NCBI GenBank assembly: GCA_000004985.1
Contig: GG738873.1
Length of the DNA: 64,000 bases
DNA from: Naegleria gruberi
Taxonomy: Eukaryota
Strand: one strand, 5' to 3'
Shown here: positions 4,160 through 56,401 of the stretch, one piece after another
Layout of the letters: every line of letters begins with the position of its first letter
Position numbering within the stretch: the stretch's first letter is position 1
Position numbers and translations under genes: made by a program
Notes under the pieces: model-generated
What the model was told of the DNA's origin: nothing
Database searches by the model: none
What the model saw: the letters and a program-made list of their open reading frames with translations, nothing else

Positions 4160-4232
4160 GCCCGTCTAGCTCAGTCGGTAGAGCGCAAGGCTCTTAACCT
4201 TGTGGTCGTGGGTTCGACCCCCACGGTGGGCG
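4160..4232 (+). tRNA. tRNA-Lys (anticodon CTT)
   Basis: The 73-nt sequence GCCCGTCTAGCTCAGTCGGTAGAGCGCAAGGCTCTTAACCTTGTGGTCGTGGGTTCGACCCCCACGGTGGGCG has a canonical cloverleaf with anticodon loop CTCTTAA. It is near-identical in layout to eukaryotic tRNA-Lys-CTT. Confidence 0.9.
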
Positions 4233-9618: not shown

Positions 9619-9671
9619 TAATTTTAATGGTTTGTAAACTTGGAGATTGAACTGACAGTTTGTTAAAAAAA

Positions 9672-12600: not shown

Positions 12601-13604
12601 ACCACAATGGAGCATATGTCAACTCAGTCATGTCGTACTCTCAATTATTCTCTTCCAATGCTGGATCTACGTACTATTTATTGAAACTTGCTTGCCTGTC
12701 ATCAAAATTGAATATCCAAAATGATGGAGATTCCTTAACACCAATTATTCTCGTTTCAACTGTTGGTGTTGTACAATCTGCGTTGTCAGAATTTGATCTA
12801 CCAACCAGAAAATCTCAAGTTAATGATAACCCTCAGGAAACTAAAGAAATGATTAGCAATCATGTCGATCAAGTCATTGGTCAACTGAAACCAATTATTG
12901 AAAAAGCAGCTGGGTATAACAGCACCAAATTTATTGCAGAACAATACATTCAACAAGCAAGGTTATTGGGATATCCCGGTGCCATCTTTAGACCAGGAAT
13001 GATTGGAAGTGATACTGAGAATGGAGTTTCGAATTTAGAGGACTGGGTCAATAGGTTGATTCTGGGATGTTTCGAATTGGGTTGCTTCCCACAAACCAAA
13101 AAATCTCTCAATGTCATTCCTGTGGATATTATTTCAAGAGTGATTGTGGAATTGACACAGAATGAGAATGTATTCATTGGTACTTTACAATCCAATCCAA
13201 ACTATTTGATTTATGAGGTGGCTAATCTTTCTCAATATGAAATTCAAATTGATAATTTACTTGGCATCGCTGCCACAACTCTAGCGAAATTGCTAAACAA
13301 GAAACCAATGGAAATGGTTAGCTACACTAAGTGGAAACAAATACTGAATGAGAGAACATCAACCGAAGAAAACGAAATGTTATTGATTTTGAAAACTCTC
13401 TTCAAATCAGATACGGAATTTCTAAAAAGCATAAACAAACTCCAAGACAACCACATTCAGAAAATCATTGAAGTTCTTTCTAGATCAGAAAGCATACAGT
13501 GCAGAGAATTAGTTCCTAACAAAAATCTAAACCAAAACTATCTTGAAAAACAAGCTCTATACCTAGTCCAGAGTCTCAAGAAGAAATTGGGCGAAAATTT
13601 ATAA
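9672..13604 (+). CDS. ZZ-type zinc finger, long-chain acyl-CoA-synthetase-type adenylation domain, phosphopantetheine carrier (PCP) domain and NAD(P)-dependent thioester reductase domain (about 1,310 aa)
   Basis: Uninterrupted ORF; the first ATG at 9672 has an A-run before it. The ZZ finger is CNKCQGFIDRGTIRYVNTDEKDFDLCENCYHWCWEQY. AMP-binding motifs are LVFTSGSTGIPKG, GYYKNEELT..GWLHTNDI, IIDRLKNIFKLSQGEFIAPAKIE and LLTSSMKVKR (ACSL-type). The carrier motif is GNMKIIDSLHAVKF...IDIPLSLIF (DSL serine). The reductase domain has LLTGSTGFLGAFLL (Rossmann fold) and GYNSTKFIAEQ (YxxxK). Confidence 0.85.
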   Translation: MIIDQHQTAPRWICNKCQGFIDRGTIRYVNTDEKDFDLCENCYHWCWEQYQKRKQHNTNSQFNSLDDDGDDDVGNNTENNKILDMFCRDLEFIVPTKYHYSEMKGRIKSSDRFNSSLFRSFVEYSLNPCFGLLKQDDGPYHFQTYEQVFHLICCISIGLDQILKPLIRVGKRQFVSICGKNNLYWYLSDYACFFRGFVIAPIHFAQSFEETKYCIELTESQVAICTEEMLDLFIRITKELDIVKYIIVMDDTESKSRGKFTNQRGTQEIEIIPMNDIIDAGKSILCEYLNEKNKPRTNPYPEHYENHETILVTPPQDKYDPRKMWIGVEHEEFILNRLDNEEDLVTLVFTSGSTGIPKGIMMSDRALRKEVLSLRIKDPKVRFSFCPLAHMSDRKYTLLAMCNGARVGIFTREFVHIFEDIQNCKPVVIASTPRLFNVLYDEFKKVVELERIRWLSSTETGKPKTEKELEERTMLDFQYMLGGRVQSIILGGASSSPQLREFLAKCFQCKVTDGFGMSEAGGIMNNNRLNTNVEYKLIDVPELSYFTTDKPYPRGELCVKTNYMFIGYYKNEELTNNALDENGWLHTNDIVEELGPNQIRIIDRLKNIFKLSQGEFIAPAKIEDALTTSKFIFQAFIYGNVTKSYLVGVIVPNKTVLKQFAIKEGIIKPSADHHLLNEEEKEVLANNELIKKALCEEIEKVAVNCSLLSYEVPKDFIIEFEPFSEKNDLLTSSMKVKRFGCEMKYKEQLETLYEHVDRNYKRKLDEDLIRELLVNSSSGSEESADGNMKIIDSLHAVKFSGIMKQKFNIDIPLSLIFSQTDRNVESVVSRVSNFVTKGQTNQQSYDWKKDILLPQELLDEITDITSKGKQKFNKISNLKKGILLTGSTGFLGAFLLRDLLENLQTAQEHVKIYCLIREKNQQHSLFTRLKKHLVKFNIWKDTYERRISVIRGNLQDENLGLSHEEFNKLAGDVDIIYHNGAYVNSVMSYSQLFSSNAGSTYYLLKLACLSSKLNIQNDGDSLTPIILVSTVGVVQSALSEFDLPTRKSQVNDNPQETKEMISNHVDQVIGQLKPIIEKAAGYNSTKFIAEQYIQQARLLGYPGAIFRPGMIGSDTENGVSNLEDWVNRLILGCFELGCFPQTKKSLNVIPVDIISRVIVELTQNENVFIGTLQSNPNYLIYEVANLSQYEIQIDNLLGIAATTLAKLLNKKPMEMVSYTKWKQILNERTSTEENEMLLILKTLFKSDTEFLKSINKLQDNHIQKIIEVLSRSESIQCRELVPNKNLNQNYLEKQALYLVQSLKKKLGENL

Positions 13605-14261
13605 AGTTTTAAGAAAAGATAAAGTTGCAATATGTCTGAGTTTTCTGGATTTTCAAAAAGTGAAATATTCCGAATGTTAAATTGAAATACTTATTACCAG
13701 GTTAGCTAGCCATAAAATTTGTCATCATACATGCTCGGAATTTGACAAATACTCAATTTTACTCTGATTGAGATTTCTTTGTGCAATGATTTTTCAATTA
13801 ATTAAAAGAGTTAGGTGGCTCCTAATCTGACGGTTTGTGCAATGTCTGATTGAAACCAAATCAAAGTGAGCAATTAAGCTCAAACCCTGATCCCTACAAA
13901 AAATTGAGTTAATAGTAGATGCAACCCGTGAGCTGCTTTCAGCTATTAAACTGAAAAGAAAAGATACTACACTCGATCAAAGCCAATTGGCCGAGAAAGA
14001 TGGTTTTGAGAATTGCATAAGGAACAGAGTATTTATTCTGTTGGTTGTGGAGTGAAGAATGGCAAAATGTTTGTGGTATTTTAATAAATTTTAATGCCTT
14101 GTTCGACTATTGATATTGAACATGTAGCGAATCTTAATAATCAATATTTATGATGGAGCAGTTCAATCAGAACTTGGAAAGAATGTGAGAAGCAAACTTG
14201 ACTAACAATTAAGGGGGATGCATTGATAAGTAAAACGTGAACTAGTGAAAAAAACAAATAA

Positions 14262-14268
14262 ACAAAAA
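14262..14268 (-). terminator. Pol III oligo-T terminator directly after 5S copy 1
   Basis: The minus strand reads TCTTTTTGTTTATTTG immediately 3' of the 5S end. Confidence 0.5.
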
Positions 14269-14390
14269 GACTACAGCACCACAGGTTCCCAAGTTGTCTC
14301 CAACCTCAGTACTGATGTGGCTCGACGATGCTTAACTTCTCAAATAGGACGGGATGAGGTGTATTCATCGTGATATGGCCGTAGCCATAC
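14269..14390 (-). rRNA. 5S ribosomal RNA gene (copy 1)
   Basis: The minus strand reads GTATGGCTACGGCCATATCACGATGAATACACCTCATCCCGTCCTATTTGAGAAGTTAAGCATCGTCGAGCCACATCAGTACTGAGGTTGGAGACAACTTGGGAACCTGTGGTGCTGTAGTC. It is about 122 nt, has the conserved 5S blocks (CTACGGCCATA, CCCGTC, GAAGTTAAGCA, AGTACT, GGTGCTGTAG) and is followed by a T-run. Confidence 0.85.
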
Positions 14391-19260: not shown

Positions 19261-19269
19261 AGATGAAAA
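19261..19269 (-). terminator. Pol III oligo-T terminator after 5S copy 2
   Basis: The minus strand reads TCTTTTCATCTTTT immediately 3' of the 5S end. Confidence 0.45.
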
Positions 19270-19391
19270 GACTACAGCACCACAGGTTCCCAAGTTGTCT
19301 CCAACCTCAGTACTGATGTGGCTCGACGATGCTTAACTTCTCAAATCGGACGGGATGAGGTGCATGAATCGTGATATGGCCGTAGCCATTC
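19270..19391 (-). rRNA. 5S ribosomal RNA gene (copy 2)
   Basis: Same 122-nt sequence as copy 1 with about 6 substitutions, followed by a T-run. It sits 27 nt from the ATG of the thioredoxin-domain gene. Confidence 0.85.
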
Positions 19392-20720: not shown

Positions 20721-23700
20721 ATGCTACCATCATATCTTGCCAACTCTCCTGCCAGTGAAAATAACCAAGAAACTAATGTGGAATTCAATGAACAACACTC
20801 TCTAAAGAGAAAGAAAGAAGAAATAGACAAGGAATTGAAAGCTTGGGAGATTTTTGATGAAGTTAACAAGTACAAAGATGAACCATCTTTCAAGAAGGCC
20901 AAAAAAGCACTCAACCAGACTGAATGTTGTCCTGCAGGTCGTAACTTGATTGATAATGTCTTTATGCAAGATTGTGAATCATCTGATAATGATTCTTCCT
21001 CAGATGATGACCAAAGTAATGGTGCTTATAAGAAATCATGTTTAGGATTGTACAAGAGTGCAATTCCAAGCAAGGCATCCTGTATTATGGATACTTCTGA
21101 AGAATTACCATCAATCATTATCCCAGCTAGAAGAAGAAGAAAGAGTGCCAATACAAATAGTCCAACTTCACCAACTATTCCATCAAACGTTACTAATGAA
21201 CAAGTAACAACATTGGCTAATGTTTCTTCTGCACGTTCTGCAAAGAAATGGAACTCTTTCGAAATGATGCCTCACGGTATTTTGGTATTCATAATGTCAT
21301 ACATTTCTCAACCAATGATCATTCATGCAATGATGGCTGTTTGTAAGAGATGGTACCAAATCTCCAAGTTCAGTACACTTTGGAAGAGAATTGATTTTAA
21401 TGGTTCATTCAAGATCAAATCAATGAGTGATGTTGTTGGTTTCCTCGAAGACTTTACCACTTTAAAGATTTCTGACATGAGAAAGACCTATGCATTAGGT
21501 TCTACTGTGCTCATGGAATCTTTGGGAGGATTAGGTCAAAAGGAAGTTATTTACAATGTCCAACAATATGAATATGGTCTTTCTCTCCAAAAACAAGAAC
21601 AATTAGGTATCTATAAGAATGGTGGAGTTTTACTCCCACCAAAGAAATCCAGAATGCCTCACCTTTTTGGTGAAATCATTTTACCTGCTTCTTGTTCAAA
21701 CCTCTCTGTTGAAACTTTTGAAAAGTTGAAAGAGGTTTATCCATCCTTGTCTAAATTGGTTCTTCCAATGTGTTCTACAATTTCCACAGTTTCTAATACT
21801 GGTGCATTTCCTATCAATGCTGATAACAATTCCAGAATTCAATTCAATACTGAAGACATTGAAAACAGTATTTCTGATTCTGTACTATTGCAAATTGCCA
21901 AGATGCCATATTTGAGCTATCTTAAAGTATCTACTCATCACAAGTTAACTGATCAAGGTTTGAATGAATTTTCCATTCTTTCAAAGAGACTTGAATCCAT
22001 TGAACTTGACTATTGTTTGGGTTTGACTCAGCAATCACTCTTGCATCTTGTAAAGAATAGCAAACATATTAACACTATTAGTGCTCTCAGCAATGGAAAC
22101 ATTGTTTTGGGAGATCAAGAACTTGTAGAATTATCCCAATATGGTTCTCATTTAAAAGAATTGAGAATTGATGTTTCAAATATTTCTCTTCCATCCTTCG
22201 CTACCTTTATTAAGGGTTGCAGAAGACTCCAAACTTTATTTATTAGAGGTCTTGATTGTATTACTGATAAGACCCTCGATGTTATCTTTGCCGAGCTCCG
22301 TTACATTCGTAATATTACAATTATTTGTGAGAGCCCTGAGAAGACTGCTACAAACAAAATCTTCTCTACAACAATTTCTAGCACCACCTTAGAATCCTTC
22401 CAAATTACTGGTTGTGAGACTTTGAACATTTCCTTTGATCATTGCACCAACTTGAAGAAAGTATCTATTGACCAATGCAAGAGCTTGACTGGTCTTCAAA
22501 TTTCTAACTCCTTACTTGTTGATGAACTAAAATTCAGAAGTAGTAACATTGCATATGTGAACCTTTCACAATTGATAAATTCATTGCCAAAGTTGAGAGA
22601 GTTTGAACTCTTTGATTGCCAATCAGGAGAAACAAACAAGACTGTTACTTTCAATTCTGATATTATGAGAAAGATTATTATTCTCATGTGTAACGACATT
22701 ATCAACCTTGAAGTTTTATGTAGTAATCTTAGATCTATGAGCGTTGATTTGTGTGCCAACATTGAAAAGTTGATTCTCAAGAGTCCAAAGTTGGAAAATT
22801 TACAAATGTTTGCTCTTCCTCAATCAGCTACTCCAAAGCTCAAACATTTATTTGTTGAAAGTGATCATATCCAATCTTTGAACTTGCAAAAGATTCTCTC
22901 ACTCGAACAAATTGCAGTCAAGTGCAAGTCTTTGGATTCACTCAATGTTTCCAACCTTCATCAACTCAGAAGATTGGAAACTGGACCATGTCCAAAGCTT
23001 GAAAAGTTAGCCCTAGGAAGTGTCTTCCTCTTATTTGATGATCATCTTGTATCCAATATTATTAGCAAGTGTCCAAATATTAGTATGTTGAGCATTTCCA
23101 ATAGTGTATCATTGAATGATGTATCACTTGGAGTTTTGTGCAACAATTTGCCAAACCTTCAAGCTCTTGTCATTTCCAATTGCCAACGTTTGTGGAATGT
23201 CAACATTCAATCATCTGTACTTAAAGGTATCCAAATCTCAGATTGTCATCTCCTCAAGTATTTAAACTTGAAGAGTGAAAATCTTAACAAGTTATTCATT
23301 AGAAATTGTCCAAATGTTGAAGATTCTACATTTGATAACCTCTCTGCCTTCAGTCCAAATATCAAGTTTGTAGAGTTGGTTAATTGTAGTATGCTCAAGT
23401 CACCACATCTCAAGCTTCCACAACTTGTCGATCTCCATTTCAGAGAATGTGCCCAATTAGAAGTTCCAACCATTACTTCTGAATATTTGAAAAAGTTGTT
23501 GATTGTTTCTTGCACAAAGTTTTCTCACTTTAATGCTCAATCAGCAACCCTCTCTGAAATTTTACTCTCTGAATGTCCAAACTTGAACGAAGCTAATCTT
23601 ACAAAGAGTCTTTCCCAAACCGAAAACATTCAAGCTATTGTTTTCGATAAGTGTAAGGCCCTTAGAGCTCCTCAATTGAATCTTGATAACCTCAAGCTCG

Positions 23701-24449
23701 TTAGATTTACCTCATGTAATAATCTTGTCAATCCAAAGATTAATATTAGAGGTAATTTGTCTGTTCTCTCCTTCCAACATTGTGATAACATCAAGATTGA
23801 AAAGTTGAGCACCAACATTACTGGACAAAATATTGATAATATTGAAATTACTGAATGCAAGGGAATGACCAAACTCTCTTGTGATTTACCAACTAAGAGT
23901 TTGAGTGTTAGTGGATGTTCCAAACTTTCCTCTCTCACTCTTTCTCAAACCATTCAAACAATCCTTGTTGAAAAATGTCAAGCTCTCTGTACTATTCAAT
24001 GCCCACAAGAATGCCGTGTGACTGAGCTTAAAGTTAAGGATTGTGAACAATTCTCCTCTGTTCAATTTAGTGGACCAAATCAAGATATGAAGATTCTTGG
24101 ATTTTCAAGATGCCCACGTTTATCTGATATGTGTTTAGCATCCATGTTAAGCAAGTGCCAAACTCTTGAAAAGGCAAGATTAAGTGCTTGCGGTCTTGCT
24201 CGTCCATTTATTAATCATGCCAATTTATCTACTTTACATATTTCTCATTGTCAATACTTGGAAAGAATGAGATTAAAATGTCCAAAGCTTATTACCCTCA
24301 AACTCAATGATTGTCAAGCTTTAAATTCTGTTGTATTTGCTGAAGCTTCACCTGAGCTTAAGAATGTAACATTGAAAGGGCTTTCTGTCTGTGCATCTGA
24401 TAGAGAACTTTTGATGAGATGTTCCAACTCTAGTGTTGCCTCACAATAA
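20721..24449 (+). CDS. F-box / leucine-rich-repeat (FBXL-type) protein, 1,242 aa
   Basis: Uninterrupted ORF. A canonical F-box (MMPHGILVFIMSYISQPMIIHAMMAVCKRWYQISKFSTLWKRIDF) is followed by more than 25 cysteine-containing LRRs (C..L..L.L..C..ITD). Confidence 0.85.
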   Translation: MLPSYLANSPASENNQETNVEFNEQHSLKRKKEEIDKELKAWEIFDEVNKYKDEPSFKKAKKALNQTECCPAGRNLIDNVFMQDCESSDNDSSSDDDQSNGAYKKSCLGLYKSAIPSKASCIMDTSEELPSIIIPARRRRKSANTNSPTSPTIPSNVTNEQVTTLANVSSARSAKKWNSFEMMPHGILVFIMSYISQPMIIHAMMAVCKRWYQISKFSTLWKRIDFNGSFKIKSMSDVVGFLEDFTTLKISDMRKTYALGSTVLMESLGGLGQKEVIYNVQQYEYGLSLQKQEQLGIYKNGGVLLPPKKSRMPHLFGEIILPASCSNLSVETFEKLKEVYPSLSKLVLPMCSTISTVSNTGAFPINADNNSRIQFNTEDIENSISDSVLLQIAKMPYLSYLKVSTHHKLTDQGLNEFSILSKRLESIELDYCLGLTQQSLLHLVKNSKHINTISALSNGNIVLGDQELVELSQYGSHLKELRIDVSNISLPSFATFIKGCRRLQTLFIRGLDCITDKTLDVIFAELRYIRNITIICESPEKTATNKIFSTTISSTTLESFQITGCETLNISFDHCTNLKKVSIDQCKSLTGLQISNSLLVDELKFRSSNIAYVNLSQLINSLPKLREFELFDCQSGETNKTVTFNSDIMRKIIILMCNDIINLEVLCSNLRSMSVDLCANIEKLILKSPKLENLQMFALPQSATPKLKHLFVESDHIQSLNLQKILSLEQIAVKCKSLDSLNVSNLHQLRRLETGPCPKLEKLALGSVFLLFDDHLVSNIISKCPNISMLSISNSVSLNDVSLGVLCNNLPNLQALVISNCQRLWNVNIQSSVLKGIQISDCHLLKYLNLKSENLNKLFIRNCPNVEDSTFDNLSAFSPNIKFVELVNCSMLKSPHLKLPQLVDLHFRECAQLEVPTITSEYLKKLLIVSCTKFSHFNAQSATLSEILLSECPNLNEANLTKSLSQTENIQAIVFDKCKALRAPQLNLDNLKLVRFTSCNNLVNPKINIRGNLSVLSFQHCDNIKIEKLSTNITGQNIDNIEITECKGMTKLSCDLPTKSLSVSGCSKLSSLTLSQTIQTILVEKCQALCTIQCPQECRVTELKVKDCEQFSSVQFSGPNQDMKILGFSRCPRLSDMCLASMLSKCQTLEKARLSACGLARPFINHANLSTLHISHCQYLERMRLKCPKLITLKLNDCQALNSVVFAEASPELKNVTLKGLSVCASDRELLMRCSNSSVASQ

Positions 24450-33367: not shown

Positions 33368-36046
33368 ATGAAAAAACAACACAACAGCAAGGTGAGAAAA
33401 TCCATGAATCCCTCCTTGTTATCTTCTCTCTTGCCAACACCAACAGCATCATCAACAACTGAAGATATTTCTGAGGAGCCAACAGATTCCTCTCCTATTA
33501 GAGAAACAACAACAACAAGAAGGAGAAATAATCATGCAACAGTAGTATTGGCAATTGATGAGGAGGAGAATGATAATGATGATGAGGAAGTAAATGATGA
33601 AATTGGATTATCCATTGCAAAGAGTGAGATTTCCCTCCGAACACTTCCAATGATTAATTCAATAGAAAAGGATTTTTCCGATGATGATGAAGATGATGCA
33701 GATGAAGCCTTTGATGATTTGAATGAAGAAGAAGAAACTCTATTATACTATCGGAGGGATGACACTGTGAGTGAGGATTCATCTACTGGAGCAGCTGCTT
33801 CCTCTGCTATCAATGGAGGATTTAATTCATCATCAAACAATGCTACTAGAGGAGTCTCTAATCCTCTTCTCGTAACATCAGAAGCAACAAATCCAATTCT
33901 TAATTATGGAACTGAAAAGAAGAAGAAAAAGAAGAAGAAGAAGAAGAAATCAGACAAGGCCAAATTGGATTTACAATTCATGATTCGGTTTTTCAAAATA
34001 ATTGGATATTGTCTGAGGGATATTGGATATAATAGTGATTATCATTGGACTGATGAGAATGGAAGAAGAGTTTCCAGATTGTTTTCAAGAAAACGAGTCG
34101 TGCATGAATTGAATCAATCAGAGAAGAAGGGATGTGGAGCATTTTGTTACAACTTTTCATTGTTTAACGTGTTTTTGGTGGTTCTCTTCTTGCTTATTTG
34201 CATTGGAGAGATTTTACTGGGAAATGAAGTTGGTAAATTACCTGGAGCTTTCTATACTGTAATTATTGATGCGAGTTCTAAGAATTTTGGAGATGCCAAA
34301 CCATTTATTCATGTCATGTTGACAAGTTTACTTTGGATTTGTGGAATAACAGCTCTGAAAACTTTTAGACAATTTATTTTGGATGTTATTCGAGTTTATT
34401 GGAGAAGAAATTTAACTTATCATACACAGAGGAGATATTTCGAGAATAGTAACTTTTACAAAATGTTGTTACTTGATAAGAGAATTGATAATCCAGATCA
34501 AAGAATTACCAAAGATGTAGAGAATTTTGTAGATATGACTTGTAAATTAATTGAGAGTGTTTTCACAGGACCAATCACTGTATTTTACTATACTGTCACT
34601 GTGTTTATGAATTTGGGTTGGCAAGGGCCTCTTTTCTGCTTTGTCTTTTTCATTATTGGTTCCATTTGTAACAAGTTGATTATTTCACCAATTGCTAATT
34701 TGTGGTTTATTCAAGAAAAGTTTGAAGGAAATTTCAGATATACTCATGCATTGTTAAGATCAAATGCAGAGTCTGTTGCCTTCTATGGAGGAGAATCAAA
34801 TGAAAAGATCAAGTGCAATCAAAAGTTGAAAGGAGTAATCAAGAATAGAAGAAAGATTGTTGTGTGGAATTTACTCTTGAATGGAAATATGAATTTATTT
34901 GGTTATGTTGGAAGTATTTTGGCATATGTGATTGTTGCCATTTCTGTATTCTTGATTGGTGGATTTATTGATGCCAATGCTACAGCAGGTGAAATTGCTG
35001 GCAAGATTTCTGTTGTAAGTATTCTTGATTGTGTAAATTAACATGTGCAGTCTTCATTCCAAGTAATGATGCTCATCTATGGTTTTACCACCTTCATTCA
35101 GACTGGTGCTAATATTTCAGAACTTGCTGGTTTTACTGGAAGACTCGGTGAAATGTACGAAGTGATGAATGAAATTGAGAAGGATACTGAATTGAATAAT
35201 ATTGGAAAGGTTACTGAGGAACACTCACTTTTGGAATCAACAACATCCAATAATAATTATCAACAAGAATCGGATAGATCTGGATCCACCGATACTAACG
35301 ACGTGAACTATATTGAATTTAAGAACGTCTCTGTATCTGTTCCAAAAGGTATCAGAGAAAAGTACAGAACCAATCACAACCTTGTTGAAAATCTTAGTTT
35401 CAAGATTTTACCAACTCAACACACTTTAATTGCAGGTCCTAGTGGTTGTGGTAAATCATCAGTTTTAAGAATTTTGGCAAATTTGTGGCCAAACAACTCT
35501 GGACAAATTATCAAACCGTCCACAACTCTTGGAAACAGTTCGAAACCAAATATTTTCTACGTTCCTCAAAACCCTTACATTTCCAGTGGTTCGCTAAGGG
35601 ATCAAATTACTTACCCACTCAAAACTCCAAAGAGAAATGTGGAAGATCATCCAGCTCTCTTAGAAGCCATTCAGCAGTCTCGACTCGAATATATTCTCGA
35701 ACGAGTTCATAAGAAGGATTGGGATGGTGAGTGTAATTGGAATGAATTGTTGAGTCCTGGAGAGAAGCAACGTTTAGCTCTTGCTAGAATCTTTTATCAC
35801 AAACCTAAATTTGTAATTCTCGATGAAGCAACCAGTGCTTGTGATGTAAATGTTGAAGAGATGATTTATCGTGACATTATCAAACAAGGATCTACAGTCG
35901 TTTCAGTTGGCCATCGTCCAACCATTGTGAAATTCCACACTCACATGCTTAGACTGAATGGATCAGCCTCAACTTTGGAAAATGCTAAAGGATGGGAATT
36001 TGGAGAAATTTCAGAATTCAGAACGAAAAAGAAGAAGAATTATTAA
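33368..36046 (+). CDS. ABC transporter, subfamily D (peroxisomal-type half transporter). join(33368..35014,35051..36046).
   Basis: ATG follows an A-run. A low-complexity N-terminus precedes a membrane domain with ABCD hallmarks (NPDQRITKDVENF, EAA-like loop). A 36-nt intron (GTAAGT...gtgcag, phase 0) joins it to a nucleotide-binding domain with Walker A GPSGCGKSS, signature LSPGEKQRLALAR, Walker B VILDEATSA and an H-loop. Confidence 0.8.
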
Positions 36047-38244: not shown

Positions 38245-39526
38245 TTTTTTTGTTTTTTGAAAACGTGATGCATAAGAAATACTTCTAATAGCTTTCTAAT
38301 GAATTGTAAGCTCGCTAATTTGTGAATTGAATTCCAAAACAGTTTTGACATTGAGCAACTCAAAGAGCTGAAACAAAATAGCAGAGTTTGGAATATGAAA
38401 ATAAAGGTGAAGAAATTATTGAGGTTAGTGAAAGTGGAAATGAAGTTTAAGGGGTTGAAAGTGTAGTGAGATCATGGAGAAGATGATGAAGAGGAGATTG
38501 GAAGAAGAAATAAAGGGGAGTAACGTTGAATAATTTCTATGATTTCTTTTCAATTAAAATCACATGATAGTGAGAATGCTGTGTCATGCTTGTTGTGTAT
38601 TTTTTGTAGAAGTAAAATAGTAGCGCGATATTTTACCGTTAAATTTTTAAAACAAAAACAAGCACAACACCCAATTCGTGTTGATGAAGTAATTTTTAAA
38701 AACCAAGAAAGACATCATCTACAAAAGCAAAAAAACAATCGGAAAAAGAACATGAAGAATTAGTAACTCTTCTTCCAGAAGCAGTCTTGCTGTATTTTCA
38801 TTGATTTGATGAAATTGTTTTCCCTCTTCCTAACATATGTATCTTTTTGGTAACTGTCAATATAGTTCATTGTGAGTTGCATTCTTCAGCAGCATCCTAA
38901 AATGTCATCAAATTGTTTTATACAACAACAAGTCTCAATAATAATAACACAACCATCACTCTATTAATATTTTCAACAATCATCATCAACAAAAAACCTT
39001 AACTGTACCTGTTATATTTGCAATTCATTCCATTTGTATCAAGTGACACGAATTATCTTAAGCACACAACTGCTTATTGAATTCATCCACTTAATGCAAT
39101 AACAATAACAGAATTGCATTTCCATCTACCCTTCACATTGTGTTTCTAAAGAGGGCCTTCTAAAATAATAAGTATGCGACTCAATGTAAATAATTCTATC
39201 ACAACCCTTATGGACATGAGTATGTATTGTAAACAAACAATCGGAAATGTTATCCAAAACAAAGATATTTAAAAGCCCGATTTCTGAATTTTGTTTCCAC
39301 TGTCTAAGGATGGTATGAAAGGGGATGTTCATTTCTTGGAACATTTGGGTAACCTACTACTTATTCGAAAGTGACACCGATGGTTGTCGTGCCGCAAAGA
39401 GTTTGTTCGTTTGCAATAACTCTGATTTGTTTTGGCTCTTGATTCAGGTGGGCCGATTTCGAATAACTATGGGGACAAGGATGTTTGGGAAGAAACATCT
39501 TTCAAAAAAAACTCTGTACACTAAGA

Positions 39527-42500
39527 ATGCCTGAAATTCTTGGCAATACAACCCACGCTAAACATGCTGTGGGATTTAACGTATCCCTCTTGGTAAGTTT
39601 CGAATAGAGAACATCTTTACTAATATTTCAATAATTAACAGAAAGGTGGTACTATTACTCAAACGATTGTAAGTTGTTTCCAATAGAATCAATGTTTTCA
39701 AACCATTCAGATTGGTGCAATTATCACAGGTTTAGTTGTTGCATCAACTGTTGCTACTATTATTCTCGTTTCTGTTGGTGTTGGTTACTCTAGTCCAGGT
39801 AAGTATTTCAGTGTTGAATTAGGCTGGTTTATTCTTGCTATTTTATGTTTTCCTCACATGCCTTCCTCTGGTGCGCTGTTAAATCGTGTTATCTCTCCAA
39901 ACATTGTTGATGTTCTAAAACATTCGAATAGTTGCCAATCCTGACACTGCCACAACATTCAAGCGTGTTGCTGTTACTCTTGATGTTTTGGCCAATGACA
40001 AAGATCCACGTGGTGGTAATCTTACTTTAACCCAAATTGTTGTTTCTCCTGCACATGGTACCGCAAAGATTGTTTCCAACTCCAAGATTGTTTATCAATC
40101 AAATGGAGCATTCTCTGGTAATGACACTTTCAGTTATGAAGTTACAAATTCTTTCATGACTGCAAATGCAACTGTAACTGTACAAGTATTGAATAGAGCT
40201 CCAGAAGCTGTTCCAATTACTAAAACTGTCTCTAAGAATGTCAAGAATAGTTTGATTGACATTTTTAACTTTGTTGGTGATAATGATCAAAAGATTAGTG
40301 ATCCAGATTCTGATGTATTGTATGCTGTTTCTTATGATGGTAGAAAGATTTTGAGTGGAAACTCTGATTCTTTTGGTTCCATTACTGTTGATCCATATAA
40401 TGGTTATTACTATACTCCTGTAGATGGTTTTAATGGAGTTGAACAATTCAATTATACTATTAGTGATGGTAATGATACTTCCACTTCCACTATTACATTG
40501 ACTATTGCCAATGACGCTCCAGTTGCAGTTGACAATGTCTATAACGTTCCAAAGTATGGTAGCATGGTATTGGATGTCTTGTCCAATGACTATGATATCA
40601 ATGGTGATGATTTCAATATTTCAAGTGCTGCTGGTACTGGTTACGGAGCTATTGCTGTTGACAAGAAGTTTATTACCTATATTACCTCGAGTACTCGTAC
40701 TAAGAAGTATTCTGATTCTTTCGAATACACCATCTCTGATGGCAATTTGGAAGCATCCGCTATTGTAATTGTCAATGTTTACAATTCTGCCCCAACTGTT
40801 TACTCCAAGACTGTTATTGTTGCCAAGAGCTCTGTTAACAATCTCATTACTGTAGATTACAATGATCCAGATCGTAAGGATTTGGTTTCTTTGAGCCGTG
40901 TTACTCCTGCTTTGGCTTCATTGTCCCCTGCTGCTTCATTGTTGGTTACAACCACCTATGAAAATGTCTTTTTCGAATGTTGTGAATGGATCAAAGTTGA
41001 AACCAATAATTATACTATTAGTTTCACTCCAGTTGCCAATACTGTCTATACTCAAACTTTAACTGTTACCATGACTGATACCGAAGCTGAAGGTACTGGT
41101 ATTATTACTATTATTGTTCAAAATACTCCTCCAGTTGCTGTCTCTGATTCTGCTGAATGTAATAAGAATCAACAAGTCTTGATTAATGTTGTTGCCAATG
41201 ACTATGATCAAAATAGTGGAGACACTGCCTTAATTCAATTGTCAGCTGTTGGTTGGACTAGTGCCACAACAAAGGGTGGTTCTGTTCAACTTTACAATAC
41301 CACACATGTCTTGTATACTGCTCCAAGTAATTTCTTGGGTGATGATGTTGCTACCTATGTCATTACTGACCAAAGTAAGGATGCTCAAGGTAATCCAGAT
41401 TCTACCAGTTATTCTAAAGGTACTATTAACATTAAGGTCATTAATAATCCACCAACTCCTGCTGATGATACCATCACCATTTCAAAGGGTGTAACTTCTT
41501 CTTTGAATGTTTTGGACAATGATTCTGATCCAAATGATGGTGCTTCATCTGTTTATACTATTAATTCTGTTTCTGCTTCTTCAATTAAGAATATTTTGGC
41601 TACTATTCAAAAGACTAGTGGTGCAAAGGATACCTTGTCTTATACTGCTAACAATGAAGAATATACTGACAAGCTCACTTATGATGTCACTGATCAAGAC
41701 GGCATGACCTCCACCTATAAGGCTACTGTTACTTTGAATGTTATTAACAATGCTCCTGTTGCTAAAGATGATACCTATTCTACCAAGTGGAATAGATCTG
41801 TTGAATGTTCTGTTAAGGATAACGATGAAGATATTAACGGTGATTTGGCCAAGTCCACAATTTCCATCACTTCTAATCCATCTAATGGTGCTGCTTTGGT
41901 TGTTGGTGATAAGATTGTTTATACTCCATCTAATGGATTCGTTGGAACTGACTCATTCAAGTACAAGTTGAATGATGGTAGTTCTGCAAATGCTGATTCT
42001 AATAGTGCTACTGTTACTATTACTGTAACTAATACTGCTCCAGTTACTGTTGCTGATTCTGCCACTACTCACTGGAATAATCCAAATGGTATCTTGGTTA
42101 GTCCATTGACCAATGATAATGATCCAGATGGTGATGCTCTTGTTGTTGTTTCTGCTTCTTCTGATTCTTCAGCTGGTGTTGCTTCAGCTGTCGATTCTCA
42201 AACTGTTAAATTTGTTCCAAACACTGTCTCTGCCACCACTGGTACTAAACAAGTCACCTACTATGCTTCTGATTACAATATGCAAACTGCTGGAACTATC
42301 AATGTTCAAGTTACTAATACCAAACCAGTTGCCAATGCTGACTCTTATACTCTTCACTGGGCTGCTTCTACTACTCAATTGAGTGTCTTGTCAAATGATG
42401 CTGATGCTGATAATGATGATCTCTCAGTTGGAAGTGTTAGTGGTAGTTCTGCTGCTGTTAACAGTGGTTCATCAATCACTTATACTCCAAAGAAGGATGG

Positions 42501-45500
42501 TGTTACTGATATATTCCAATATACTGCTACTGATTCAGTTACTGCTTCTGATGCTGCCACTGTTACTGTCAAGTTCACTAACAATGCTCAACCATCTGTC
42601 AGTGATTCCTCAACCACCATTCACTGGAGAACTTTTGCTTCTCAAAACAATCAACAAGATTTCACCGTTCTCAACTCTAACACTGATGCTGATAGTGATT
42701 CTCTTTCATTGACTGTTGGCGCTTCTGCTACTGGTATTTCTGGAGCTTCTTGTATCAAGACTAGTGATTCTGTTCCTAAGGTTAGAGTTACTGCTCCAAC
42801 CAAGACTGTTGGTACTGCCTCTTGTACTTTCACTGTTTCTGATGGCTTAGCTTCAAGCAGTGCCAAGACCTCTGTTGTCATTACTAACAATGCTCCAACA
42901 TGTAGTGATATTACTGTTTCATTCAATCCAAGTTATATTTCATCTGGTCAATCTTTCTCAATTGCTTCATCTGTAACTGATGCTGATTCTAATGATATTC
43001 CATATTTGGTTCCAGGAAGTGCCATCATTGTTGGTTCTACTTACCCAAGTGATAGTTTCCAAGTTTCTGGAAGTAATTTGTTATTCAAACCAATGGCTAC
43101 TGTTGGTGATCGTAATTATGCTTACACTGTTACTGATGGCGTTTCTACCTCTGCTCAATGTGCCTTCAAGATTGTTGTTAGCTCAGTATCTTCCAGCGAT
43201 TATGCTCAAAGCTTTGATGTTCATTGGGCTGCCACCTCTGTCAAGCTCGATATTTTGGCCAAATTGACCACTTCAACAATTGTTCGTTTGGGTTCTACCG
43301 CTGCTTCTGGTACTGCAACCATCACTGGTGGGATTCTCTATTTCACACCATTGAGAAAGATCTACGTTGACACTTTCACTGTAATTGTTGCTGATTCAGG
43401 AAATGTTGAAAGCACTGTCACTGTCACAGTTTCAACATTCAACAATGTTCCAACCGCTAGTCTTGCCACTCAAACTATCAATTGGGGAACTTCCAAGACT
43501 ATTGACCTCTTGGTTAATTATGCTGATACTGACTATACTAATGGTCTCGAATCTAAGGGAACAGTTAGTAGTATTGATAAGACATCTCTCAGTACTAAGG
43601 GTACTGTTTCTGCTCTATCAGGTAGCTCTGTTACTTATTCTGCTCCAGCCAATTATGTTGGTACTGATAGCTTTAAGGTTACTGCTACTGATGGTTTGGC
43701 TACTGTCACATTCACTGTCACTTTTAACATGATCAATACTGCTCCAGTTACAAACACTAAATATTTCAGTATTCACTGGGCTACTCACAAGGCTGGTTAT
43801 TCAATGAATTTGGCAACTGATGTCACTGATGCTGAAGGAAATACCTTAACTTATTCTGTTACTCCATCAAGTATTTCACCATCCACTGCTGGTACCGTTG
43901 CTATGGGAACTTCACCAAATGCTGTTGCCACTGGTCCATCAAGTGCTTACTTGGGTAAATTCTCATTCACTTATTCTGCCTCTGATTCTATTGCTACAAC
44001 TCCTGGTACCGTTCAAGTTACTGTTTACAATAACATGTCCACTCCAGTTGCTGACTCTAAGGATGTTCACTGGAAGGCTACTGGTATTACTCTTAGTCCA
44101 TTTGCCAAGTTTGCTCCAACCTTTAAGGATGCTGATGGTGACAGCTTGTCATTTGTTAGTGCTTCAGCTCAAAAGGGTACTGTTAGTACTGGAACAACCA
44201 CTTTAACTTACAATGCTCCTGGAAATGCCATTGGTGCTGATGTTGTCTCTTACAAATTCACAGATGGTGCTGAATCTCTCCAAAATGCTGCCACAATCGT
44301 CAATATTAATCTCTTCAATACTGCTCCACGTGCCATTGATAAGACCGCTAGTGGCAAATGGAGTTCAACAATTACAGTTGATTTGAGCAGTTCTTGTGTT
44401 GATGATGATTCTTTGGATACTGCTACTTTCAATGGAGCTGTTTCAAGCATTGTTGGTGGTACAACTTCTGTTTCTGGAAAGAGTGTTTTATATACTCCAA
44501 CTAGCTCACTTACTTATACTGGTTCTAATGGTGTTTATACTGCTACTGGTTCATTCAAATTCCAATGTACTGATGGTTTGTCAACTGCCACTAATCCTGG
44601 AACTGCTACCATTACAGTTACTAATAATGCTCCAACTGGTACTGGAAAGAGTACAAGTATTAATAGAGATTACACAAAGACTACCTATGATTTCACTTGG
44701 GCTGATATTGCTACTGTTTCTGATGCTGATGGTGACTCTATTTCATACATTAACTTTGCCTCTTCTGATGCTGCAATCACCGTCTCTAATATTGGAACTG
44801 GTATCAGATTGACCACTTCAAACAAGTTTGTCAATGGTGCCAAGTCTATTACCTTCAAGCTTAATGATGGTCTTCATGACAGTGTTTCACAATTGACTTT
44901 CACTGTTACCTTTGTCAACTCTGCTCCAGTCTGTGCCTCTAACTCTATTACTTTGAATAAGAAGGATTCAATTGATCTCTCTACATTGTTCTCTGCAACT
45001 GATTCTAACAATGATCCATTTACTTATGCTTTGACTAGCTCAATTTCCACTGATTTTGGTACAACAGTTGGTACTGTCTTTACCGCTTCAGCAACCCGTA
45101 GTGGTGCCACTTCTGTTACTTACACTGCCACTGATACTCTTGCTACCAGCACTGCCTGTACTATTTCAGTAACTATTAACAATAGAGCTCCAGTTGCTGA
45201 TGACATTTCCTATCAAGTTGTTCCAGTTGCCAGTTCATATGTTCACTCTTACACCTATGTTGCTACTGATGCTGATTCTGATACTTTGACCTATACTGCC
45301 ACAAGTAATGATTGTGTTTCTCAAAATCTTGCCACTACTCTCACAATCTCAACTTCAGGTGCCATCACCTTCACCAGAAAGTCAACTGCAGTTTCTGGAA
45401 GTTGTAAACTCTACATTACTGTTACTGATAACAATCAATTGACCAATGCTCAAGATACTGCCACTATTACATTTGTTATCTCATCAACTTCACCAATTGC

Positions 45501-46662
45501 TAAGGACGACAGATTTGAAATTAACCAAGGTCAAACTATTAGAATTTTCGCAAGTCAAATCTTGGCCAACGATCTCGATGAATTCAATTCCACATCCACT
45601 CTTACTCTCACCAGTATTTCATGCCCAGACTCGACCTATTGTCACAAGACTCCAAGACAAGTTACTTACAATGGTTTACCAGCTGTTGAACTCGATTCTG
45701 ATTCTTCTACTTGTCAAGCTGATAAATTCAGATATGCCATGACAACTGGTATGGGTGCTGTCAGATATGCTGACGTCTATGTCGAATTTAAGAATTGTTA
45801 CTGTGCTGCCAAGATTGACTTTGTCTTTTTACTCGATTCCTCCAAGTCAATTGGTTCAACTAACTTTGATTTGATGAGAGATTTGTCCAAGAGAATTACT
45901 GGTAGAATGAAGATTGCTGACGATGCCATTAAGGTTTCCATTGTCAAATTCCACAACAATGGTACATTGGCTTTGAAACTCTCCTCTGATGGTACCTTAA
46001 TTAATAGCACACTCACAACTATGTCCTACGAGGCGGGAAGTACGGCTCAAGTGCCCGGACTCAGAGTTGCTGTTGATGCTTTGAGACCTGCCAATGGTGG
46101 TAGAGCTGATGCTGACAAGGTTATTTATATTTTAACTGATGGATTGGCAAACGTTCCATGTTCATGTACCTCTTGCAGAAATGAATGGCAAGCAAAGCCA
46201 TCAGTCTTTTACAATTCAATTCAAGTTAATATTTTAGGAAAGTACACTGGAAATACCTTGAATTCTCAATTGGACAATTTATGTGCTTACAAGTATACTG
46301 ATACTTCAGTTTTGAATGGACAAACTTGTTCATACTGTTCCTCAAGTAATTATGCCTATTGTTTACCATGTGCTGATGCTGTTCCAATTGCTTCAAAGAT
46401 TAATAGTTGGAAGCGTAATGCTAGTGGAGTTGTTCCAACTGATCTTGATAATCCTTACAATGGAAACAATGCTGTTCAATGGAAGATTGTTGCTATGGCT
46501 GTAGGTGATGCCATGTCAAATGTTTGGGGAGCCAGACAAATCCAAGGTATGAATTATGATTCCACAAGAGCTATGACTGTTTCTTGGACTGACTTGTCTT
46601 CAACTATGAGTGAAATTGTCGATCAATCTTGTAATCAAGTCACAACTACTGCTGCTGCTTAA
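39527..46662 (+). CDS. Giant signal-anchored surface protein (about 2,240 aa). About 19 tandem cadherin-like/VCBS-type repeats of roughly 95 aa plus a C-terminal von Willebrand factor A domain. join(39527..39592,39642..39668,39711..39798,39932..46662).
   Basis: Three small 5' exons with GTAAGT donors encode MPEILGNTTHAKHAVGFNVSLL, KGGTITQTI, and IGAIITGLVVASTVATIILVSVGVGYSSP (a TM/signal anchor). The main exon holds the repeats, with a recurring LxVLxNDxD...DxL, YTPxxGFxGxDxFxYxxxDG, and AT/SVTITVxNxAP pattern. The C-terminus has vWA motifs (VFLLDSSKSIGSTNF...IYILTDGLAN). Confidence 0.75.
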
Positions 46663-54328: not shown

Positions 54329-56401
54329 ATGCCATTCTTTGAAGACTTTCTCACCACTCCAGCACGATCAAATAATACCAATCATCAACCAAAGAAAAAA
54401 CCCACATCCACTAATAACAAACAACAACAACAAAATACATCAACAACACAAATGGTCGATGATGTTGTAGAAGTAAATTCCGATGATTCCGATGCCATTG
54501 TTTCATCACCCTCCACTGCAACTCATAAACGAAGGATTCCCAAAGTATTAAATCATACCAAACCCATTGTTGTTATTGATGATAAAGATGAGAGGAGTAG
54601 CAGTGGTGCTGCTGCAATTGTTATTGAAATTGATGATATGACAAAGCCTAAGGTGAAGAGAGAACGTTCGGATGATGTGGTTTTTGTATCATCAAAGAAA
54701 GTGGTGGTGCAATCGACTTTATCGGAGCCTTCAATTGTTGCATCTTATAATAATAATGGAAGCAATAATAGTAATAATATGAATAATATGAATAATATGA
54801 ATAATAGTAGTAGTACTTTATCAAATTCGACAACTACAATGGGCAGTACTGTTGCAGCAATGACACAAGAAAAATCACAATCTAATAATTCATCGATTAA
54901 TAGTGGAGAAAAGAGCAATCATTCCTCTAATAATTTGGAAAGTAATAATTCGAGCCAGTTTTCACAAGTTTCAACGAGTGCTAATAGTGCTATTACTACT
55001 ACTGTCCAGACTACACCAATAGGAAACAATAATTCCAGTAATGGCGTGGCAGTTGTAGGTTCGCCCGATGTCATTGCCAAATTACCAAAACCTAAAATTG
55101 AGGAAAATTCAATAATACCATCATTACAGCAAGCTAATCCTATTGTGAATAATCAACAACAAATGGGAAATGTCAATGCAGATATGAGAAATAATTCGAA
55201 CCCCTCTATAACAAGTGGAAATAATCAAACATCACAACAGAAAGATAACCTCAATCAAGTGACTTTAAAAATTCCAAATAATTCCACACAATCTGTTAGA
55301 ACAGTGAGCCTAACTTCTTCAAACATTCCTCCTCAACAACAGCAAAATATTGCAAAACCAAAAGAAACTATCCCAACAGTACCAACTCCACCTTCTCCAA
55401 TTTTCCAACCCAACCAAAATCCTGTAAATACCAGAATACCAAGCCCTGCTAGCAATGTAACAAATCCTACCAATCAAATTAACAGACCTGTAAATAATAA
55501 TTTAACTATCGAACAACTCACGCAACAAACTCTAATCACAATTGAAAATTTGAAAAGGAGAGTTGAGTTTAGTACTGTGTCATGCCCTGTAACACGAAAA
55601 ATCGTTACTAATCCAGTTTTGGCTAGTGATGGAATTGTATATGATAGAACGTTCATTCTGTCCTACATTTCTGAGCATGGAAGTTATAGCCCTATAGTGA
55701 AAGGATGTAAAATAACTGAGTCTTCTCTCATTAATGTTGATAGCATATATGCAAAGGCTGTATTAATGATTGAGTGTAGAATTTCAAAAATAATTGAAAT
55801 ACTTCAAAGCCCTGATTTTTTAAAGCTAGCTCCCTTAATACCGGAAAATTATTTGGATTTGATTAAGTTTGCTTTGGATTTAATGGCAGAAGGGAAACTA
55901 AATACACCTTCCACACCAAAATTTATTGAATTTTTAAGAAAGAACAAAGCCAAGTTACTATCTCATTACAGTTCCAAGTTGAAACAACAAGGGAGAAACG
56001 ATCAATCGTTGTACATACTTATGGAAAGTTATGAAATGCACAAAATTGGATGCCACTGTGACGATATTGCTTCTGTCATAGTTTCACTTTTGACTGAAAC
56101 TAAGGAACAAAATGTTGTGAATGAGGAAAAGAAAGCAGAATTGATACGAGATCTTTTTACGATTTCAAATTTGTCTCTTCCTAAATTATTGACCTATTTT
56201 AATATTGAGAAAGATTTTGCCATAATATTGGACATACTTTCAGTAATGATCAAACGAAACATGTGTAGATATGAGGCAATTTCAACTTTTATAATTCAAA
56301 CAATAACTGAGATCAATAAGGGAGAAATAGACAATCCATTTTACAAACAAATTTTGTTTTTCAGGGATCAATTAGTGATTTGCAGAAAGGAAATGGAATA
56401 A
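54329..56401 (+). CDS. U-box domain protein (690 aa) with a long N/Q/S-rich low-complexity N-terminal half
   Basis: aaaaaaaaATG start. Residues about 395-460 fit the U-box consensus (FSTVSCPVTRKIVTNPVLASDGIVYDRTFILSYISEHGSYSPIVKGCKITESSLINVDSIYAKAV). The upstream half is poly-N/Q/S/T. Confidence 0.65.
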   Translation: MPFFEDFLTTPARSNNTNHQPKKKPTSTNNKQQQQNTSTTQMVDDVVEVNSDDSDAIVSSPSTATHKRRIPKVLNHTKPIVVIDDKDERSSSGAAAIVIEIDDMTKPKVKRERSDDVVFVSSKKVVVQSTLSEPSIVASYNNNGSNNSNNMNNMNNMNNSSSTLSNSTTTMGSTVAAMTQEKSQSNNSSINSGEKSNHSSNNLESNNSSQFSQVSTSANSAITTTVQTTPIGNNNSSNGVAVVGSPDVIAKLPKPKIEENSIIPSLQQANPIVNNQQQMGNVNADMRNNSNPSITSGNNQTSQQKDNLNQVTLKIPNNSTQSVRTVSLTSSNIPPQQQQNIAKPKETIPTVPTPPSPIFQPNQNPVNTRIPSPASNVTNPTNQINRPVNNNLTIEQLTQQTLITIENLKRRVEFSTVSCPVTRKIVTNPVLASDGIVYDRTFILSYISEHGSYSPIVKGCKITESSLINVDSIYAKAVLMIECRISKIIEILQSPDFLKLAPLIPENYLDLIKFALDLMAEGKLNTPSTPKFIEFLRKNKAKLLSHYSSKLKQQGRNDQSLYILMESYEMHKIGCHCDDIASVIVSLLTETKEQNVVNEEKKAELIRDLFTISNLSLPKLLTYFNIEKDFAIILDILSVMIKRNMCRYEAISTFIIQTITEINKGEIDNPFYKQILFFRDQLVICRKEME

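Follow-up and report, generated by a model that had tools for sequence, protein, structure and literature searches.

A four-exon gene occupies positions 39527-46662 (+) of the 64-kb stretch of Naegleria gruberi NEG-M DNA analysed here, hereafter called the window, and encodes a protein of 2303 residues that consists of a short N-terminal tail, one hydrophobic segment, a long array of cadherin-like repeats and a C-terminal VWA module. Most of the gene coincides with the open reading frame (ORF) 39988..46662 (+), which has 2224 codons, opens with TTG and has no ATG, as noticed in the preliminary description of this DNA; when its frame is read upstream, a stop is reached within ~20 codons. Since the DNA is 36-40% GC, a chance origin is excluded for this 6.7-kb open frame. 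The preliminary description also placed three micro-exons of 66, 27 and 88 nt with GTAAGT donors ahead of the ORF, and these do splice in frame: exons 1-4 (66, 27, 88 and 6731 nt) join into a 6912-nt coding sequence for 2303 aa with one terminal stop, and all three introns (49, 42 and 133 nt) run from a GTAAGT donor to an AG acceptor. All parts of the gene lie on the plus strand. In this in-frame splice model, exon 1 (39527..39592) supplies the start ATG and the predicted cytosolic tail, MPEILGNTTHAKHAVGFNVSLL, an N-terminus that is common to homologs. It is followed by intron 1 (39593..39641) and by exon 2 (39642..39668), which encodes the conserved juxtamembrane motif KGGTITQTI, in which K23, T26 and Q29 are invariant (alignment A2). 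Beyond intron 2 (39669..39710), exon 3 (39711..39798) carries the bulk of the putative transmembrane (TM) anchor and then the beginning of repeat 1. Intron 3 (39799..39931), of phase 1, precedes exon 4 (39932..46662), which comprises the repeats and the VWA module and includes the TAA stop.

The splice junctions were judged from homologs. The N-terminus of the spliced product is conserved in seven of them (alignment A2), and the module is carried by N. fowleri P0125 (2312 aa), the N. gruberi paralog EFC39496 (2816 aa), Willaertia magna KAL9644294 (3559 aa), N. lovaniensis KAG2374233 and two environmental proteins. A 332-aa predicted protein encoded by another N. gruberi contig (P0001, 71% identical) begins MANTVLGSTTAAKHAVGFNLSLLKGGTITQTIIGAIITALVIASTVATIILVSVGVGYNPPVAAND, nearly every residue of which is that of the spliced product. 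At the N. fowleri genomic locus, GFNLSLLKGGTITQTI is encoded within one exon that spans the position of N. gruberi junction 1 unbroken, and VGVGYSPPEPKNDMATTFKR is encoded unbroken over the position of junction 3, while an intron is placed no more than 1 nt away from N. gruberi intron 2. The N. fowleri ortholog (locus L003, VFQX01000051.1) has three introns in all, at 3035-3190, 3257-3427 and ~9783-9885, and two of them are absent from N. gruberi, one after codon 11 and the other inside the Cys-rich insert of the VWA module. Finally, a 6536-nt environmental contig (L002) encodes anchor, repeats and VWA in a single unbroken 6.4-kb ORF. Because the N-terminus is conserved, the N. fowleri DNA continuous and the environmental ORF uninterrupted, the N. 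gruberi junctions are very likely correct, as far as sequence comparison can tell. The exact 2303-aa product is absent from a collection of 15 billion proteins; the official N. gruberi annotation therefore lacks the gene or models it differently, so that it may miss the gene altogether or carry a wrong model. Upstream of the start codon lies a stretch of 1.28 kb (38245-39526) in which no ORF exceeds 74 aa; it is presumably the promoter and 5' untranslated region, and is long for such a gene-dense window.

The repeat array covers residues 58-2017 (39789..45801, +, interrupted by intron 3). A hidden Markov model (HMM) built from the protein itself delimits 20 contiguous, head-to-tail repeats of ~98 aa, spaced by 87-111 residues. 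The preliminary description had counted ~19 and called them bacterial-style cadherin-like repeats; the number has to be raised to 20, while the bacterial type is borne out by the profile search that had been proposed as a check, which assigns the repeats to Big_9 / tandem-95 and not to a typical eukaryotic family. Pfam Big_9 (PF17963) matches 17 stretches with 415.9 bits against a cut-off of 23.6 (E 4e-127), the NCBIfam tandem-95 repeat NF012211 matches 14 stretches with 302.7 bits against a cut-off of 90, and Cadherin_4 and Cadherin_5 match 15 and 11 stretches, respectively. The repeats share the register N-x-A-P-V-A-x-D-D ... [VL]-x-N-D-x-D-x-x-G-D ... Y-T-P-x-x-G-F-x-G-x-D-x-F-x-Y ... D-G ... 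T-V-T-[IV]-x-V-x-N, which is kept better in repeats 1-9 than in repeats 10-19, and many of them have an acidic ND-x-D-x-x-GD. Identity between repeats inside the array averages 26% and does not exceed 40%, and Tandem Repeats Finder saw no long-period DNA tandem repeat in it. The array is therefore old and has not undergone recent expansion. In an AlphaFold2 (AF2) model of repeats 7-8 (pLDDT 92.4), the pair is almost wholly beta and folds into two beta-sandwich domains. Foldseek matched this model to the cadherin-like (CDHL) modules of the staphylococcal adhesin SraP and to many pairs of extracellular cadherin (EC) domains from cadherins and protocadherins, with E 1e-7 to 1e-9, the best rigid superposition of the tandem being that on SraP (TMq 0.58). 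At the sequence level, a PDB search with two repeats returned nothing significant (best E 0.42), and the classical Pfam Cadherin family PF00028 had no match at E <= 0.1, the cadherin families matched being the bacterial-type Cadherin_3, Cadherin_4 and Cadherin_5. A side effect of the array is a series of 12 Leu-rich ORFs (62-138 aa each) at 40505-46504 (+), which lie across the repeat region in a shifted frame and arise because the codon usage of the real frame is Thr/Ser/Val/Ala-rich. The Leu-rich nested ORFs had been attributed to antisense translation, an attribution that must be dropped as the main explanation, since 12 of the 18 nested ORFs with a length of 60 aa or more are Leu-rich and are read from the same strand in another frame, the other six being antisense.

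The C-terminal VWA module (45769..46659, +; residues 2007-2303) has its Pfam core at 45817-46152 and matches Pfam VWA (PF00092) with E 2e-15 and 58 bits against a cut-off of 23.8, and VWA_2 with 33 bits against 27. It had been described as a canonical VWA domain with a metal-ion-dependent adhesion site (MIDAS). The MIDAS is indeed complete, consisting of D2029-x-S2031-x-S2033, T2098 and D2130 (codons 45835-45849, 46042-46044 and 46138-46140), and is invariant in 11 aligned family members. The domain is not canonical, however: a Cys-rich insert of ~110 aa (46144..46479, +; alignment A1), modelled with extra helices, lies between beta4 (ILTDG) and beta5 (WKIVAMAVG), and because it splits these two strands the Pfam VWA match is limited to the first 116 of the 174 profile positions. 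The module contains 11 Cys in a conserved pattern, of which 8-9 are invariant in the 11-member alignment A1, namely C10/C12 at the start of the domain, C288 at its end and, within the insert, C131, C172, C190, C198 and C201; the last cysteine is followed by nine residues before the protein ends. An AF2 model of the module (pLDDT 82, pTM 0.85) has the VWA fold, and Foldseek gave target-relative TM-scores of 0.72-0.79 against vWF A3, integrin I domains and ANTXR1/2, with sequence identities of 13-27%. When a profile of the module was compared with the PDB, the best single-domain matches were T. gondii MIC2 (85 bits), also the top Foldseek match, integrin alpha1 (81) and alpha2 (74), then alphaM, TRAP and vWF, the best multi-domain ones were collagen VI and mussel PTMP1, and none of the best 60 matches was a bacterial chain, a ranking biased by the summing of scores over several domains in multi-VWA proteins and by the abundance of eukaryotic VWAs in the PDB. 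Among database proteins outside the family, those closest to the module are metazoan and contain multiple VWAs, namely proteins of Branchiostoma and a cephalopod COL6A. A scan of 185,579 prokaryotic genomes, one per species, for the best-conserved motif in the alignment of the VWA module produced 17 pattern matches, of which none was confirmed as a relative, although a single peptide pattern makes this a weak negative. The VWA thus appears to be of the eukaryotic extracellular type, with sampling bias as a caveat.

The whole protein has a predicted mass of 242 kDa and is acidic (pI 4.5). As proposed in the preliminary description, it starts with a short tail and a single TM segment or signal anchor. 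The tail consists of residues 1-30, with N18, S20, L21, K23, T26 and Q29 invariant in alignment A2. It is followed by a 27-residue segment with four Gly, IIGAIITGLVVASTVATIILVSVGVGY (residues 31-57; 39666..39788, +, interrupted by intron 2), which is the sole hydrophobic segment above 1.6 on the Kyte-Doolittle scale (maximum 2.43, runner-up 1.32) and is conserved over the family, G33 being invariant. I infer a type II (N-in, C-out) single-pass membrane topology. The composition of the predicted ectodomain (39789-46659) is consistent with it. This part of the protein contains 15 N-x-S/T sequons for N-glycosylation against 42 expected from composition, an observed/expected ratio (O/E) of 0.36. 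The ratio is also low in most Naegleria and Willaertia homologs (P0125, P0153, P0199, P0218 and P0126 were compared): 0.37 in N. fowleri, 0.29 in Willaertia, 0.38 and 0.52 in N. gruberi paralogs and 0.15-0.72 in N. lovaniensis. By comparison, the median O/E of 119 tandem-95 proteins, either bacterial or environmental, is 1.34, with only 1% of them below 0.5, and the cytosolic control proteins of the window range from 0.6 to 1.5. A few environmental family members show no sequon depletion. The simplest reading is that sequon loss would reflect selection against N-glycosylation of a bacterial-type fold that passes through the endoplasmic reticulum; the depletion therefore lends support to a lumenal or extracellular site for everything after the TM segment. 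The conserved pattern of the 11 Cys in the C-terminal module likewise speaks for an extracellular site. The gene could serve as a model for the adaptation of a foreign domain to its host, as a clean, long-resident bacterial-type repeat module joined to a eukaryote-type VWA and a lineage-specific anchor, with ortholog introns at different positions and sequons depleted ~3-fold relative to bacterial homologs.

The family to which the protein belongs came to light when the last 390 residues served as query in an exhaustive phmmer search, word-index homology searches having given only proteins of at most 806 aa. Full-length matches to the module lie at the C-terminal ends of proteins from N. fowleri, N. 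lovaniensis (three), W. magna, Acrasis kona (two) and N. gruberi (EFC39496 and EFC44248), and further matches come from several metagenome and Logan sequences. All eight homologs that were scanned have Big_9/Cadherin_4 repeats and then a VWA. The family is defined here as the heterolobosean N-anchored tandem-95/VWA family, by an N-terminal MPE and a conserved tail motif, N-x-S-L-[LI]-K-x-x-T-x-x-Q, with a TM segment, followed by Big_9 repeats and a C-terminal module of the pattern C-x-C...VWA...C-x-P-C...C, all of which the protein described here has. At least four paralogs exist in N. gruberi. The N. gruberi protein and its N. fowleri ortholog are 57% identical and have 20 repeats each, which pair one-to-one, with 41-76% identity on the diagonal and 13-40% off it; no flanking genes are shared between the N. 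fowleri ortholog locus and the window. Two members, EFC39496 (P0199) and Willaertia P0153, have a conserved extension beyond the VWA that makes up their C-terminal ~300 residues and ends, by eye, in a Cys/Trp domain with a C-type-lectin-like look; Pfam found no additional family in this extension at E <= 0.001. A 1440-bp metagenome contig of 29% GC (L001) encodes a Big_9-like repeat and the same Cys-rich VWA module in what looks like an AT-rich eukaryote; its nt 1-90 are the exact reverse complement of ~540-630, so that it is probably an assembly chimera.

The origin of the repeats and that of the VWA seem to be distinct. A search with the repeat region had 1355 matches (E <= 0.001); among the 120 matches listed, those with a named source are all bacterial except a Naegleria paralog, the remainder are unnamed metagenome proteins, identities are 27-39%, and no phylum prevails, a cyanobacterium, Vibrio, Acidobacteria and Planctomycetes all being represented. 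Such a set of matches, like the bacterial-type Pfam and NCBIfam models that fit the repeats, would speak for a recent transfer of the gene from a bacterium, or for contamination of the assembly by bacterial DNA. Both possibilities are effectively refuted by the rest of the data. The gene sits in a 462-kb N. gruberi contig among eukaryotic neighbours, has three spliceosomal introns and a host-like GC content at third codon positions (GC3), and is represented by orthologs and paralogs in five heterolobosean species or more, the 20-repeat arrays being collinear and the ortholog introns at different positions; moreover, no bacterial match exceeds ~39% identity, and the single-pattern prokaryotic scan for the VWA motif yielded no relative. 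The intron-bearing eukaryotic context and the horizontal origin had both been put forward in the preliminary description. The context stands, with three introns and eukaryotic neighbours; of the horizontal origin, recent transfer falls in the face of a conserved, collinear family, and ancient capture of the repeat module is retained as a qualified possibility. Since the family is deep in Heterolobosea, codon usage is host-like and ortholog introns are at different positions, the repeat module, bacterial in type, was probably acquired anciently, at the level of the domain. The alternative is that there was no transfer, Big_9/tandem-95 being an old eukaryotic or universal extracellular module that descended vertically in Heterolobosea and was lost or diverged elsewhere. 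Bacterial-like repeats do occur in Amoebozoa, for instance in Dictyostelium Sib (PMC2651865) and in a highly expressed tandem-95 gene of Vermamoeba (PMC7125106), the family is old within Heterolobosea, and the bacterial matches listed do not single out a donor lineage. Against this, the named repeat matches among those listed are overwhelmingly bacterial, with one eukaryotic source only, and the module occurs patchily, in bacterivorous amoebae alone, a distribution more easily explained by uptake from prey, repeated or ancient, than by vertical descent. I therefore regard purely vertical descent as unlikely, though it deserves to be kept in mind. By analogy, the Sib repeats and the Vermamoeba gene suggest that bacterivorous amoebae may have used such modules repeatedly. 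On the reading preferred here, that of ancient acquisition, the protein looks like a lineage-specific chimera of bacterial-type repeats, a eukaryote-type VWA and a family-specific N-terminal anchor.

The genomic surroundings are those of an ordinary N. gruberi gene. The contig is 461,873 bp long, with eukaryotic genes on either side of the gene, and two window ORFs, 20721-24446 and 54329-56398, match the N. gruberi proteins EFC43458.1 and EFC43460.1 exactly. The neighbours encode a Kelch-Ras fusion, an NHL-EGF receptor kinase, an F-box/LRR protein, a peroxisomal-type ABC half-transporter, a U-box protein and a BRCT-BAH protein. GC3 is 0.26 in the gene and 0.22-0.32 in its neighbours; the total GC of the gene is slightly higher because Thr, Ser, Ala and Asp are abundant in the protein. 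A megablast search of phage records with the gene gave zero matches. Among the other features of the window, a 1182-aa ORF at 4413-7961 (-) contains NHL repeats, EGF of the teneurin type and a protein kinase, and a 1314-aa ORF at 9660-13604 (+) combines AMP-binding and NAD_binding_4 domains and resembles carboxylic-acid or aminoadipate reductases. In between the protein-coding genes of the contig lie a tRNA-Lys(CTT) at 4160-4232 (+), a U2 snRNA at 13810-14003 (-) and two dispersed 5S rRNA genes at 14268-14386 (-) and 19269-19387 (-). The ABC half-transporter (33368-36046, +) appears as two same-frame ORFs split by a stop. This stop, which seems to be in frame in the ABCD transporter, falls in a very short GTAAGT...CAG intron of 36 nt (35015-35050), so that the gene is a single ordinary one.

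What might such a protein do? The suggestion of an unusual cell-surface adhesin, made in the preliminary description, is reasonable for a multi-paralog heterolobosean family with a stalk and a MIDAS VWA. From gene structure, domains, folds, conservation and taxonomic distribution, I infer a surface location and an adhesive function, and the best explanation overall, in which I have moderate confidence, is that the protein is a type II surface receptor for adhesion or particle capture with a VWA tip. In this scheme, the 30-residue cytosolic tail and the Gly-rich 27-residue signal-anchor would hold the protein in the membrane, and the conserved tail and TM segment would serve sorting or intracellular coupling. 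The 20 diverged cadherin-like beta-sandwich repeats would form a stalk, presumably tens of nanometres long, that carries the VWA to the membrane-distal tip, past the cell coat, where it would bind its ligand, on the substratum, the matrix or the surface of prey, via the MIDAS metal site. The ancestral chimera would later have gained introns and lost N-glycosylation sequons. Several observations weigh against this explanation, or at least against its details. The model has no independent annotation in N. gruberi. The charges on both flanks of the TM segment are almost equal, so that the argument for topology rests on the kind of the C-terminal domains. The 30-aa tail contains neither NPxY nor any other recognised cytoskeletal-linker motif. 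Cleavage could occur at VGVG, a conserved run of small residues with which the TM segment ends on its outer side, and the protein would then be secreted. The ranking of VWA relatives carries the bias mentioned above. Finally, literature searches, including searches for Naegleria with Big_9/tandem-95 or for the N. fowleri locus tag, found no published description of the family; a Naegleria pangenome paper merely counts VWA genes.

The possible cleavage site leads to the first of two other explanations, namely that the hydrophobic segment is cleaved, e.g. after VGVG, and that the protein is a secreted or shed component of a matrix or coat, be it pericellular, cyst-wall or aggregation matrix. The small residues G-V-G at the exoplasmic end of the segment are conserved, and the closest VWA relatives include the matrix proteins collagen VI and PTMP1 of the mussel byssus. 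However, a 27-residue segment that comes after a conserved 30-residue tail is atypical of a cleaved signal peptide and typical of a signal-anchor. In addition, the cytosolic motif is conserved across genera, and the tail is therefore likely to be kept in the mature protein, which argues against cleavage. A secreted protein thus seems improbable to me, if by no means negligible. In favour of a matrix role, two novel vWFA proteins that are strongly expressed and upregulated on aggregation are named in the Acrasis genome paper as candidates for the extracellular matrix (ECM); they might belong to the family, and the supplements of that paper gave no match for vWFA. It could also be imagined that the protein acts in cell-cell or self/non-self recognition through its cadherin-like repeats, and not as an adhesin for substrate or prey. 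The cadherin-like fold of the repeats, the several diverged paralogs per genome and the presence of the family in the aggregative Acrasis would all be in keeping with such a role. Yet the repeats of N. gruberi and N. fowleri correspond one-to-one at 41-76% identity, while recognition loci usually diversify fast, Naegleria is not known to aggregate, and the invariant MIDAS points to binding at the VWA tip. A role in recognition is consequently very unlikely, and a membrane-anchored receptor that binds through its VWA is the explanation I prefer.

Naegleria and its relatives crawl and eat bacteria, and N. fowleri adheres to and invades host matrix, but to my knowledge no adhesion receptor has been molecularly defined in any of them. 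The gene described here and its paralogs provide a concrete, conserved candidate with a predicted metal-dependent binding site, and on sequence grounds the family is a good candidate for an adhesion receptor of Naegleria and relatives. One may go further and propose that it is the main heterolobosean receptor for adhesion to substrate, matrix and prey, including the 'integrin-like' ECM adhesion of N. fowleri, and that it was assembled independently of Sib and TRAP/MIC2 from the same parts, namely a stalk of captured bacterial adhesin repeats, a VWA tip with a MIDAS and one TM segment. This is a tentative proposal, possible but doubtful. If it were true, the 'VWA on a stalk' would be a eukaryotic adhesion design that was invented repeatedly, and the family would illustrate how a bacterial adhesin module was adapted to the eukaryotic secretory pathway, with sequon loss as the footprint.

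Among known systems, the Sib family of Dictyostelium discoideum (SibA-E, 'similar to integrin beta') offers a parallel in design. SibA-D are described as combining a vWA, repeats like those of bacterial RTX adhesins and a TM domain (PMC2651865), the latter being glycine-rich (PMC3279395), and Sib mediates adhesion to substrate and particles (PMC2651865; PMC3279395; PMC9197732). Like Sib, the N. gruberi protein would be a single-pass amoebal surface protein with an extracellular VWA, bacterial-like repeats (a likeness by description) and a Gly-rich TM segment, and would bear its VWA at the membrane-distal end, far from the anchor. Sib is however of type I, with an N-terminal VWA, a TM segment near the C-terminus, a talin-binding NPxY tail and ~4 repeats, whereas the N. 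gruberi protein is N-anchored and has a C-terminal VWA with a Cys-rich insert, 20 repeats and no NPx[YF]. The apicomplexan TRAP and MIC2 are likewise single-pass surface adhesins of protists, in which a membrane-distal MIDAS VWA (I) domain binds ligands, but they are of type I, with a TSR stalk and an aldolase/actin-linking tail, and have neither Big_9 repeats nor the Cys-rich insert. The collagen-binding VWAs of metazoans (integrin alpha1/alpha2, collagen VI, vWF A3, ANTXR1/2) share the fold, the MIDAS and the terminal cysteines, and differ in their low identity (13-27%) and in the ~110-residue insert, which is unique to the heterolobosean family; integrins differ further in that no Pfam domain of the FG-GAP beta-propeller or of the beta-subunit is found in the N. 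gruberi protein. Its predicted two-repeat structure is a beta-sandwich pair like the CDHL modules of SraP and the EC domains of cadherins, without a sequence-detectable link to solved structures or, as said above, to PF00028; moreover, classical metazoan cadherins are of type I with a catenin-binding tail, in contrast to a protein whose hydrophobic segment is N-terminal only. With the bacterial tandem-95/Big_9 giant adhesins, e.g. that of Vibrio harveyi, the protein shares the repeat family, the ~95-aa period, the ND-x-D and the diverged arrays, but its gene is eukaryotic and has introns, its TM segment is N-terminal, its sequons are depleted ~3-fold and identity is 27-39%. It also stands apart from the giant adhesins of the RTX/type I secreted kind (LapA, SiiE, FrhA), since it has no Pfam match to the RTX nonapeptide PF00353 and ends in a VWA module, without type I secretion features. 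By these comparisons the protein falls outside the Sib, TRAP/MIC2 and integrin families, Sib being set apart by description, and the logic of its design would be parallel to theirs: the uncharacterised heterolobosean family is a eukaryotic variant of a known adhesin design and not a new kind of system.

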